From contig BK006949.2 of NCBI GenBank assembly GCA_000146045.2, forward strand, positions 512,001 to 576,000: a stretch of 64,000 nucleotides of DNA. The letters are read 5' to 3'. The DNA is from TPA_inf: Saccharomyces (lineage: Eukaryota). A model generated the notes under the pieces. That model was not told where the DNA came from and did not search any database. It worked only from the letters and a program-made list of their open reading frames with translations. Each line of letters begins with the position of its first letter. The stretch's first letter is position 1. The position numbers were made by a program, and so were the translations under genes. This document shows, piece by piece, positions 5,651-60,339 of the stretch.

Positions 5651-6760
5651 ATGGATTTTACGTCTGATACGACGAATTCGCACGACACATCGAATTCGCA
5701 TTTAAGTCTGGAAGACGCTGTGGGTACACATCATGCTGGTGAAGCAGATGTAAACATTGATGGGGACGAGAAGCAACAACTATCGCTATTAGATGATGAT
5801 CAGGTACGCGCACTGAAGCTACAGGAGGAGAAGGATGCGCTGTTGACAAGGAGAAATACTCTTTTACAAGAGATCCAGACGTACCAAAATATCTTGATGA
5901 AGGAAAATAACAGTAAGACTAAAAATGGTGATATCCTCCAAAACGATATCACACAGGATTTTCTTAATCTAATCTCGATCTCATCCTCTAATCCTAATTC
6001 GGCGATAAGTGACCGCAAGCGGGTCGAGAGGATCAATGGGCTAACTAACTTGCAGAAGGAACTAGTAACAAAATACGACACGTTACCTTTGTTAAATATG
6101 AATCTACGGCTAAGTTATTTGAGAGACCACACATACCCGCATCTTCAAGTTTCTGTGCAATCAAGAGACAGAGTACATAACGATGGGATTGAAGTTTTGG
6201 TGGTCAATTATAAATTCTGCAGAAACACGATGAATCCTTTTGAAATTCAGTTCAAAATGTTCTATAAATTTGAAGATTCCACACTGCTGAAGTGGGAAAT
6301 CTTGCGAATTTCCACAAACGTTAGACTGAAGGCCAAGCAATTACTGGCAACACGTAACTTCCAGAAGTGTCTATTAAGCCTTTATGAGTTTGATAAGATC
6401 AAGTCCAAAAAAACTGGAATTTTCCAAAATTTGATTAATTTATTGAAAAGGAAAACCAGGTGTTATCTAATGAATAATAGTGACTCATTAATTGTGGAAA
6501 GAGTTATTAGAGAAGGAAGACTCACGACGATAAAATTGCAGATAAATTTCATCATTACAATGCCCGGTGAGAGAGGCAAACCTCGTAACTGTTTTCTGCC
6601 CATGAGTAAAATTTCAATAGCGCTATGGAAGGGGGGAGAAAGATTTAACCAGATAGATTTGGACGAGATATGCTACGGACTTATCAAGGAATATGGTGTG
6701 AAAACCGGGTTAAAGGAGATCTGCAACGTTTGCCTATTCCCGGACATGTACGCCAGGTGA
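5651..6760 (+). CDS. CTF19: Outer kinetochore COMA-complex protein Ctf19, 369 aa.
   Basis: The ORF length is exactly 369 aa. It sits between VTC3 and IRC15. A coiled-coil N-terminal half is followed by an RWD-like C-terminal half. Confidence 0.88.
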   Translation: MDFTSDTTNSHDTSNSHLSLEDAVGTHHAGEADVNIDGDEKQQLSLLDDDQVRALKLQEEKDALLTRRNTLLQEIQTYQNILMKENNSKTKNGDILQNDITQDFLNLISISSSNPNSAISDRKRVERINGLTNLQKELVTKYDTLPLLNMNLRLSYLRDHTYPHLQVSVQSRDRVHNDGIEVLVVNYKFCRNTMNPFEIQFKMFYKFEDSTLLKWEILRISTNVRLKAKQLLATRNFQKCLLSLYEFDKIKSKKTGIFQNLINLLKRKTRCYLMNNSDSLIVERVIREGRLTTIKLQINFIITMPGERGKPRNCFLPMSKISIALWKGGERFNQIDLDEICYGLIKEYGVKTGLKEICNVCLFPDMYAR

Positions 6761-48197: not shown

Positions 48198-48289
48198 TGC
48201 GAATTCTGTGGATCGAACACAGGACCTCCAGATAACTTGACCGAAGTTTTTTCTTCAGTCTGGCGCTCTCCCAACTGAGCTAAATCCGC
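48198..48289 (-). tRNA. tF(GAA): tRNA-Phe (GAA) with a 19-nt intron after anticodon-loop position 37. The mature body on the minus strand is GCGGATTTAGCTCAGTTGGGAGAGCGCCAGACTGAAGA[intron]TCTGGAGGTCCTGTGTTCGATCCACAGAATTCGCA.
   Basis: The exon sequence is identical to yeast tRNA-Phe. The A box reads TAGCTCAGTTGGGA and the B box GGTTCGATCC. A T-run terminator follows on the minus strand. Confidence 0.95.
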
Positions 48290-48372
48290 TCAATTTCTAT
48301 GCTCTAACCACCTTAGCTAAAAACTCAATACAGGATTAGTTGATAAATGGGTGTTATCAACTCAATCCACAG

Positions 48373-48419
48373 TGTTGGAATCAGAGTCAGTTATCATCTT
48401 TGGGCTAGTATTATTGTAA
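48373..48419 (+). mobile_element. A 47-bp 5' fragment of a delta-like (Ty1/Ty2) LTR, TGTTGGAATCAGAGTCAGTTATCATC....
   Basis: It starts with the LTR terminal TGTTGGAAT and aligns to the first approximately 47 bp of delta. It is truncated by the next element. Confidence 0.6.
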
Positions 48420-49160
48420 GTGTTGGAATAAAAATTCTAAAATATCATCCATTTAGTAGTGTTCATATTACTAATATATCTGTTGGAATAAAAATCCACT
48501 ATCGTCTATCAACTAATAGTTATATTATCAATATATTATCATATACGGTGTTAAGATGATGACATAAGTTATGAGAAGCTGTCATCGAGGTTAGAGGAAG
48601 CTGAAGTGCAAGGATTGATAATGTAATAGGATAATGAAACATATAAAACGGAATGAGGAATATTCGTAATATTAGTATGTAGAAATATAGATTCCATTTT
48701 GAGGATTCCTATATCCTCGAGGAGAACTTCTAGTATATTCTGTATACCTAATATTATAGCCTTCATCAACAATGGAATCCCAACAATTATCTCAACATTC
48801 ACCCATTTCTCAATATCATCACGTGCGGTCTAAGAAGATGATATGAAGATTGAGAATAGTCATCAGGTGTAATGGAAGCTAATTGCAAGGATTGGTAATT
48901 TAGTAGGATGATGAATGACAGTCACATAAGATGAAAAGGAAAACAATAATGCCATTATATCGAGAATATCGATCTCTTCGTGGATTCTTCTCATAGAGAA
49001 ATTCTAGTATAATATATATACGAAATATTATGGCCTTTAACAACAATAAAATTCCAACAATTATCAACTAATTCGAACATCTCTTGACAATATACATTAT
49101 TAATTTTTACATTTCGACTTTCTTTGAATTAGGGACTGTCTCTCAATTCATCTCTTTCTC
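48420..49160 (+). mobile_element. An older diverged copia-type solo LTR, most likely Ty4 tau given its length of about 400 bp. It is split into 48420-48477 and 48813-about 49160 by the delta insertion. It begins TGTTGGAATAAAAATTC and ends ...CATCTCTTTCTCA.
   Basis: The sequence is continuous across the delta insertion when 48477 is joined to 48813. It is related to delta at roughly 70-75 percent identity. The terminal TGTTGG...TCTCA structure is present. The end coordinate is uncertain by about 20 bp. Confidence 0.65.
48478..48812 (+). mobile_element. Solo delta (Ty1/Ty2 LTR), 335 bp, TGTTGGAATAAAAATCCACTATCG...CACCCATTTCTCA, flanked by a 5-bp target-site duplication ATATC (48473-48477 and 48813-48817).
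   Basis: It is a full-length match to the delta consensus with TG...CA termini and a perfect 5-bp TSD. The dubious antisense ORF 48569-48802 lies inside it. Confidence 0.9.
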
Positions 49161-49503
49161 ATACAGAATATCACTTATCCTATATAACTTATATAAGATT
49201 AGAATCTAACTAGAGCGAGGAGAGCGGAAACTCGGATCAAAAGTGATTGTTTAAGTGTTTGTGCGTTTGTGCGGCTCATTAAGACAATAAGGTTTTGCTT
49301 TTGTATTCAATTTTGTGGGTTTTATAACGTATAAATGCGCTTCTTGAAAGCTTGTTAACGATTTTATCGTAAAGAAATAAATAAACTAAAGAATTGAGGA
49401 GACAATACTGTTTTGATAAATAAGCCCCAAAAATATTATAGGGCCGCAAGGAATAAATTTCATAATGCGCATATGCCCAGACTCCTCTGTTTCTTTCGAA
49501 GTT

Positions 49504-59564: not shown

Positions 59565-59714
59565 AGTCAAGTTCTCCTGCTAAAACGAGACAAAAAGAAC
59601 ACGTGAAAGAAGAAAGAAAAACGTTACGATAAAATAAGTTTTATACCTACTTTCATATCTACCAAAGGAACACAATGAATTGCCGTATGTTATTCTTGAA
59701 GTAAGAGTCAAGTA

Positions 59715-59788
59715 TTATTTATGGACTAGTATTCACGTTACTAGTACATTATCACATGCGGTGTAAGAAGATGATATAAAAATTGAGG
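59715..59788 (+). mobile_element. An approximately 75-bp internal fragment of a tau/delta-like LTR in + orientation (…TTACTAGTACATTATCACATGCGGTGTAAGAAGATGATATAAAAATTGAG).
   Basis: It aligns to positions of about 35-110 of the older LTR at 48420-49160. It is truncated at both ends. The boundaries are uncertain by about 10 bp. Confidence 0.5.
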
Positions 59789-60173
59789 GACAGTAATCAA
59801 ATTCAACGGAAGTCAAAAAGGAAGGATTGGTAATGTATAATATCGAAAAATGTGCGAAATAGTTGATAATTGTTGGAGTTTTATAGTTGTTAAAGGCTAT
59901 AATATTACGTATTTAGAATATACTAGAATTTCTCTATGAGAAGAACCCACGAAGAGATCGATATTCTCGATATAATGGCATTATTGTTATCCTTTTCATC
60001 TTATGTGACTGTCATTCATCATCCTACTAAATTATCAATCCTTGCAATTAGCTTCTATTACACCTGATGACTGTTTTTCAATCTTTATGTGATCTTTTTA
60101 CACCCAATGTGATAAAGTACTAGTAACATGAATACTACTAAACAGATGATACTTTAGAGTTTTCATTCCAACA
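59789..60173 (-). mobile_element. A near full-length copy, about 385 bp, of the same tau-like LTR as 48420-49160 but in inverted (minus) orientation. The TGTTGGAATGAAAACTC terminus reads as GAGTTTTCATTCCAACA at 60157-60173 on the + strand.
   Basis: Its reverse complement aligns end to end with the older LTR at 48420-49160. I estimate more than 85 percent identity over the long central block. It lies 96 bp upstream of tG(GCC). Confidence 0.7.
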
Positions 60174-60268: not shown

Positions 60269-60339
60269 GCGCAAGTGGTTTAGTGGTAAAATCCAACGTT
60301 GCCATCGTTGGGCCCCCGGTTCGATTCCGGGCTTGCGCA
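60269..60339 (+). tRNA. tG(GCC): tRNA-Gly (GCC), 71 nt, GCGCAAGTGGTTTAGTGGTAAAATCCAACGTTGCCATCGTTGGGCCCCCGGTTCGATTCCGGGCTTGCGCA, followed by a T5 terminator.
   Basis: It is identical to yeast tRNA-Gly(GCC), with no intron. The B box reads GGTTCGATTCC. It ends in ATTTTTCC. Confidence 0.95.

Follow-up and report, generated by a model that had tools for sequence, protein, structure and literature searches.

A stack of solo LTRs upstream of the tRNA-Phe gene tF(GAA) on Saccharomyces cerevisiae chromosome XVI, with a polymorphic delta nested in an older delta

Integration of a Ty element duplicates 5 bp of the target, and recombination between the LTRs of the inserted element leaves a solo LTR. 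When a small target window is used repeatedly, new Ty copies inevitably come to lie inside old ones, and nested Ty LTR clusters at tRNA genes were reportedly surveyed by Kim et al. in 1998. Ty1, Ty2, and Ty4 integrate within a window of ~1 kb upstream of Pol III-transcribed genes, with the integrase contacting Pol III subunits such as Rpc40, and TFIIIB directs Ty3 to sites 1-4 bp from the start of tRNA transcription (reviewed in PMC5911963). The nested clusters documented by Carr et al. 2012 (PMC3511429, Figure 1 and File S3) arose by successive Ty1/2/3/4 insertions upstream of Pol III genes, and contain younger LTRs that split older ones, solo LTRs produced by LTR-LTR recombination, and 5-bp target-site duplications (TSDs). 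The locus described here resembles them in all of these respects. The targeting of Pol III genes by Ty elements is textbook knowledge, as are the formation of solo LTRs, their nesting, and their presence/absence polymorphism, and the locus contains no new biology.

The locus lies within the 64,000-nt stretch of DNA analyzed here (the window; all coordinates are window positions unless stated otherwise). It is the interval between PDH1 and YPR003C on chromosome XVI of S. cerevisiae, and three ORFs around the LTR stack are exact matches of CIT3, PDH1 (YPR002W), and YPR003C of this species. The Pol III target drawing the Ty insertions is a tRNA-Phe gene that was missed by ARAGORN and recovered by Rfam:

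48198-48289, minus strand: intron-containing tRNA-Phe(GAA) gene, tF(GAA) (Rfam RF00005, 56.7 bits), with the sequence GCGGATTTAGCTCAG...GAATTCGCA

The preliminary description correctly gave a distance of 84 nt between the 5' end of the tRNA and the first LTR base that it reported upstream, 48373. Two ORFs, of 70 codons (48347-48559, plus strand) and 77 codons (48569-48802, minus strand), are present inside the stack and give no sign of coding. SGD reportedly lists a small ORF near this stack, YPR002C-A, as overlapping a Ty1 LTR in part.

The youngest layer is a complete delta, with the following features:

48481-48812, plus strand: complete solo delta, YPRWdelta12 (chrXVI_st208+_TY1), 325/332 identical to the RepBase TY1-LTR
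48813-48817, no strand: right ATATC copy of the YPRWdelta12 TSD, where empty-site alleles have a single ATATC

This element matches TY1-LTR with a BLAST E value of 3e-159 (97.9% identity to the active-clade reference), is 332 bp long, and has the termini TGTTGG...TCTCA. A complete delta had previously been placed at 48478-48812 with a length of 335 bp, a start that takes in 3 nt of the TSD. The ATATC duplication itself was correctly recognized on both flanks, at 48476-48480 and 48813-48817, and its left copy is found 187-191 nt upstream of the tRNA-Phe gene, in agreement with the ~1 kb rule for Ty1 (PMC5911963). Sequence identity, TG...CA termini, TSD, and a position upstream of a Pol III gene all identify the element as a Ty1/Ty2 delta solo LTR. 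YPRWdelta12 and its polymorphism have already been named and published; it is the same element, without any difference, as that listed by Carr et al. 2012 (PMC3511429, Files S2/S3) as a solo LTR of the active clade, polymorphic and present in 15/28 scorable strains. The coordinates of that study (2008 reference) equal window coordinates plus 511997, a constant offset over five Ty features, which places YPRWdelta12 at 560478-560809. The window is accordingly the S288C reference or a near-identical sequence.

To compare strains, the same interval was fetched from other assemblies via the PDH1 and CIT3 proteins. Eight other long S. cerevisiae assemblies have a precise empty site, in which the old LTR is unbroken and ATATC occurs once (...ACTAATATATCATCACGTG..., ...TTCATATTACTAATATATCATCACGTGCGG...). 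YPRWdelta12 is present in 13 and absent from 8 long assemblies (counts that leave out HN1 and XXYS1_4); these assemblies are a non-random sample, and the counts should not be read as frequencies. Four of the empty-site alleles (L002, L003, L004, and L006) have 48421-48480 contiguous with 48818 onward. Since the empty-site alleles carry a continuous old LTR, they demonstrate the nesting, the TSD, and the order of events, with the old LTR first and the delta last. This is the order that had been proposed, and it is also reflected in the survey of Carr et al., where the old LTR is fixed (27/27) and the delta is found in 15/28 strains. The proposed continuity of the old LTR on joining 48477 to 48813 is likewise borne out, with a shifted junction, as that exact join leaves 2 extra bases. 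The junctions of the two older delta layers described below occur in 22 of the 23 informative long assemblies.

Presence and absence alone give no polarity, and the alleles without the delta could be read as secondary losses through recombination between the ATATC copies, in which case the order would not be established. We consider this extremely improbable. Nothing specific speaks for it, and a segregating insertion is a far more probable explanation of the eight empty assemblies than their exact loss of the delta via 5-bp repeats. Further, YPRWdelta12 is 97.9% identical to the active-clade reference, compared with 78% for the LTR that hosts it, and Carr et al. (PMC3511429) place it in the recently active clade. 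The HN1 strain, moreover, combines an empty site with a different insertion in the same host LTR. These observations support YPRWdelta12 as a segregating insertion into an older LTR.

The LTR that hosts YPRWdelta12 is divided by it into two pieces, and is separated from a 47-nt delta fragment on its left by a single G (48420) that is assigned to neither:

48421-48480, plus strand: first 60 nt of the middle delta (layer 1), with ATATC at its right edge; match to TY2-LTR positions 1-56 (E=3e-7)
48818-49089, plus strand: last 272 nt of the middle delta (layer 1), with the terminus ...TTGACA; 48813-49065 matches TY1-LTR positions 53-317 (E=4e-25)

We compared these pieces with LTR references for Ty1, Ty2, Ty3, Ty3p, Ty4 (tau, 371 bp), and Ty5 taken from File S1 of Carr et al. 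2012. Searched separately by BLAST, the left piece stops at about delta position 56 and the right piece begins at position 53. When they are joined, the resulting 332 nt give one BLAST match over delta positions 1-317 (E=3e-33), and a global alignment has 249/320 identities (77-78% to the Ty1 and Ty2 deltas; z=19 versus shuffles). On the basis of these alignments, the older LTR is identified as a diverged Ty1/Ty2 delta of normal length that ends at 49089. The nesting of one delta in an older LTR therefore stands, both as a single match of the joined flanks and as a joined sequence found in other strains.

The family of the older LTR has to be corrected from tau to delta. In the preliminary description, the region 48420-49160 was taken as one tau-like (Ty4) LTR of about 400 bp, with the delta nested in it and an unrelated 47-bp delta fragment at its left edge, making three layers. 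This reading had some appeal, as ~400 nt remain between the TGTTGG start at 48421 and the terminal ...TTTCTCA near 49160 after subtraction of the delta, and none of the S. cerevisiae reference LTRs exceeds tau (371 bp) in length. However, similarity to tau is absent. The middle LTR gives a best BLAST E value of 0.09 and a global z of 2.6 against tau, which is below the background value of z=3.6 obtained when the genuine inner delta is compared with tau, whereas the delta references give z=19. The 406-nt join proposed earlier scores z=0.2 against tau and z=15 against TY1-LTR. The flanks thus align as one continuous LTR, with delta and not with tau. Homology to delta covers the LTR from position 1 to its end and goes no further than 49089 (...TTGACA), so that the real length is 332 nt and a tau-like length of ~371 bp does not apply; the further 72 nt belong to another element and are also unlike tau (p=0.94). 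The figure of ~400 bp arose because the 332-nt delta had been fused with this 72-nt tail, and a single tau-like LTR at this position is very improbable. The tau LTR (GenBank X67284 according to File S1 of Carr et al.) has in common with the stack only the TGTTGGAA...CA termini and the preference for sites upstream of tRNA genes, and it has no sequence similarity to any of the layers.

A TSD was sought for the middle delta and none was found, as GTAAG on the left faces ATATA on the right; a simple insertion of this LTR into the next layer is thus not demonstrated. The missing TSD fits an old copy, recombination, or deletion, and is therefore compatible with the assignment of this LTR to the deltas by sequence.

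On either side of the middle delta are two short pieces that resemble the two ends of a further delta:

48373-48419, plus strand: 47-nt 5' end of the putative oldest delta (layer 0); match to TY2-LTR positions 1-40 at 75% (E=0.007)
49090-49161, plus strand: tail of 72 nt with the terminus TTTCTCA, probably the 3' end of the same delta; 44/67 identity to the delta 3' end
49162-49166, no strand: TACAG, right copy of the putative layer-0 TSD, lying where the TY3 LTR reads TTCACGGAAT

The 47-nt fragment starts at delta position 1 and is identical to delta at 33/48 positions by eye, with a local score of 40 against a shuffle mean of 18 (p=0.0005). Its match to tau is confined to the common TGTTGGAA terminus. 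The tail is colinear with the last 72-74 nt of the deltas in a global alignment, in which it has 44/67 identities (p=0.02-0.07 with dinucleotide shuffles). Its first 49 nt are weakly delta-like, and its last 23 nt match the delta 3' terminus with p=0.0015, a value for a sub-region picked after seeing the alignment. BLAST against the LTR references gave no match above chance for the tail. Other origins of the tail were considered as well. Continuation of a Ty3/Ty3p LTR was rejected (p=0.81), and an inverted delta piece (49093-49145 versus TY2 positions 144-91, BLAST E=0.09-0.29; inverted repeat I1) was judged to be a chance match.

The fragment and the tail have the same orientation, and the tail finishes at the last base of the delta. 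Directly outside them are CACAG on the left (48368-48372) and TACAG on the right (49162-49166), which match at 4/5 positions. We suggest that the two pieces are probably the ends of one older delta with the TSD CACAG/TACAG, in which case ~215 nt are missing between them. The earlier report of a 47-bp delta 5' fragment was right about the fragment, which probably represents the 5' end of an older delta and does not merely abut the next LTR. The terminal ...TTTCTCA reported at 49160 ends at 49161 and would be part of this different, older element.

The sequences outside the putative TSD point to a still older LTR of the Ty3 type:

48338-48372, minus strand: old Ty3/Ty3p sigma-like LTR, probable left part on the side of the tRNA gene, from a joined alignment; its last 5 nt, CACAG, are the left copy of the putative layer-0 TSD
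49167-49330, minus strand: right part of an old Ty3/Ty3p sigma-like solo LTR (chrXVI_s412-_TY3_1p), matching the Ty3p and Ty3 LTRs

For the right part, BLAST aligns 49173-49269 with TY3_1p LTR positions 248-151 (E=2.7e-14) and 49163-49251 with TY3 LTR positions 237-150 (E=1.4e-11). This part has the expected sigma/Ty3p similarity on its own, and the left part is recognized through the joined alignment alone. When 48306-48372 is joined to 49167-49340, the local alignment to the reverse-complemented TY3 LTR extends across the junction and scores 124, compared with 101 before joining. A gain of 23 was reached by only 0.07% of shuffled left flanks (p=0.0007), and trimming either side of the join by 5, 10, or 15 nt lowered the score. 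Against the Ty3p (S. paradoxus) reference, the same join gains only 5 (p=0.13). The delta cluster thus probably sits inside a minus-strand Ty3/Ty3p sigma-like LTR and splits it, a split that is probable and not proven because the gain with the Ty3p reference is small. Across the proposed insertion point, the intact LTR would probably read ...AATCCACAGAATATCAC...; among the assemblies compared, no allele was found that lacks either of the older delta layers and has an intact sigma-like LTR.

This outermost layer is similar to the Ty3 sigma and Ty3p solo LTRs found at tRNA start sites, both in sequence and in adjoining a tRNA gene. Unlike a canonical sigma, it is without ~70 nt at each terminus and is split by the delta cluster. 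The 48 nt between the tRNA gene and the first recognizable sigma-like base (48290-48337) intervene, and the original insertion point is unreadable.

Alternatively, the 47-nt fragment and the 72-nt tail could be remnants of separate elements, with a coincidental CACAG/TACAG pair and sigma read-through. The cluster would then be partly tandem, with YPRWdelta12 in the middle delta as the only true nesting. The tail is only weakly delta-like (p=0.02-0.07), the TSD is imperfect (4/5), the Ty3p reference shows no significant gain on joining (p=0.13), and the RepeatMasker/REannotate run of Carr et al. recognized neither the two pieces nor any nesting here, all of which would be consistent with such remnants. 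However, the exact outer join is the best of the offsets tested and gains 23 against TY3 (p=0.0007), the 4/5 pentamer is found exactly at both outer edges, and two same-oriented pieces that begin at delta position 1 and finish at the last delta base are difficult to reconcile with unrelated fragments. We therefore regard independent remnants as unlikely, and retain the reading of the two pieces as the ends of one delta within a sigma-like LTR.

Taken as a whole, the locus is very probably a stack of fossil solo LTRs, the remains of successive Ty integrations upstream of tF(GAA), in an order of four steps. From the flanks and the topology of the layers, we infer the first three steps and their sequence as follows. 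A Ty3/Ty3p-type element would have inserted beside the tRNA gene and decayed to the minus-strand sigma-like LTR. A Ty1/Ty2-type element may then have entered this LTR with the TSD CACAG, its delta remaining as the 47-nt 5' and 72-nt 3' ends. A second delta would subsequently have come to lie between these ends, through recombination between two insertions or a later ~215-nt deletion of the oldest delta; an origin of this kind is probable because the middle delta has no TSD. The simplest history may be either two insertions into the oldest delta followed by LTR recombination, or one insertion followed by deletion. The fourth step, which like the identity of the layers other than the oldest delta is documented directly by the comparisons above, is the recent integration of a Ty1-clade element at approximately position 55 of the middle delta, duplicating ATATC. 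LTR-LTR recombination then collapsed this element to the solo YPRWdelta12, which is still segregating in the species.

The three layers counted in the preliminary description are probably an undercount, as the 47-nt fragment and the tail are likely one older delta and the whole cluster apparently lies within a Ty3/Ty3p-type LTR. With somewhat better than even confidence, we consider the locus to be a four-deep nest (sigma-like LTR, delta, delta, YPRWdelta12) that has been published as three adjacent fragments, with 48338-48372, 48373-48419, 48421-48480, and 49090-49161 unannotated. Besides YPRWdelta12, Carr et al. 2012 (PMC3511429) list chrXVI_st209+_TY1, which corresponds to 48813-49084 (inactive, fixed in 27/27, without an SGD name), and chrXVI_s412-_TY3_1p, which corresponds to 49168-49323 (minus strand, fixed in 26/26). 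The st208 and st209 rows are adjacent and are without the '1-nested_LTR' tag used elsewhere in File S3. Nothing is annotated at 48373-48480 or 49085-49167, nor is the left part of the Ty3p LTR (48338-48372). Since four pieces and the nesting are omitted there, the nesting depth found here exceeds that of the annotation. The sole addition made by the present analysis is this small refinement of the annotation, in which nesting had gone unflagged and four short pieces had gone unannotated. If such short flanking pieces are often missed, nesting depth and the number of ancient integrations at tRNA genes would be systematically undercounted in the reference annotation. The locus is also instructive as a clear case where a TSD and the succession of insertions are proved by alleles with an empty site.

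Independent hits in other strains show that the region upstream of tF(GAA) is a recurrent Ty target. Repeated Ty integration upstream of a Pol III gene, as first proposed for this locus, is supported both by these hits and by the nested layers. Eleven assemblies (L005, L007, L010, L017, L018, and L020-L025) have a 341-bp Ty3 sigma in minus orientation, absent from the window, with the TSD TGCTC at window positions 48301-48305. Lying 12-16 nt upstream of the 5' end of the tRNA-Phe gene, this TSD occupies the position canonical for Ty3 (PMC5911963). In our sample, this sigma was seen only on haplotypes bearing YPRWdelta12 (11/13). In the HN1 strain (L012, ScRAP assembly), the YPRWdelta12 site is empty and the old LTR that contains this site was hit separately by a minus-strand delta, whose TSD is GATTG at window positions 48890-48894. 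Across lineages, tF(GAA) has been hit independently at least six times, and it could serve as a marker locus for strain typing.

XXYS1_4 (L014, GCA_947370505.1) has a remodelled cluster at intergenic positions 440-1100. It consists of the first 15 nt of a delta, a minus-strand tau 3' fragment of 55 nt, a Ty2 LTR (minus strand, 332-17), and a Ty1 LTR (plus strand, 52-338), and its junction with the Ty3p fragment is 19 nt deeper in that fragment than the junction in the window. This cluster is without TSDs and is therefore probably a product of recombination or deletion. Like other East Asian wild strains, XXYS1_4 was examined for the pre-insertion state, and no ancestral arrangement was found there.

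Three older assemblies, of HN1 (L011, GCA_903819125.2), EM14S01-3B (L013, GCA_903819205.2), and XXYS1_4 (L015, GCA_903819195.2), are without the tRNA-Phe gene. They break 1-81 nt past the PDH1 stop codon and continue into Ty3 or delta mosaics, and those of HN1 and XXYS1_4 conflict with newer assemblies of the same strains. These arrangements reflect either assembly collapse at repeats or real structural differences, and the three assemblies were not used as evidence. A metagenome contig (L001, ERZ27275356 k141_8903; locus position 6424 onward) matches the window as far as 48808, inside YPRWdelta12, beyond which come another delta, a different tRNA gene, and unrelated LplA-type and cullin genes. 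It is either a chimeric assembly or a delta-mediated rearrangement. Seven Logan short-read contigs with this PDH1 allele (L028-L034) all end exactly 290 nt past the PDH1 stop, inside the tRNA-Phe gene, indicating that short-read assembly is interrupted here by the repeated sequences of the tRNA and the LTRs.

A second LTR cluster is present in the window, 96-573 nt upstream of tG(GCC), the tRNA-Gly(GCC) gene at 60269-60339. It comprises the Ty1 fragment st210 of Carr et al. (59696-59837, plus strand) and YPRCdelta13 (59845-60173, minus strand), both of which are fixed and inactive.
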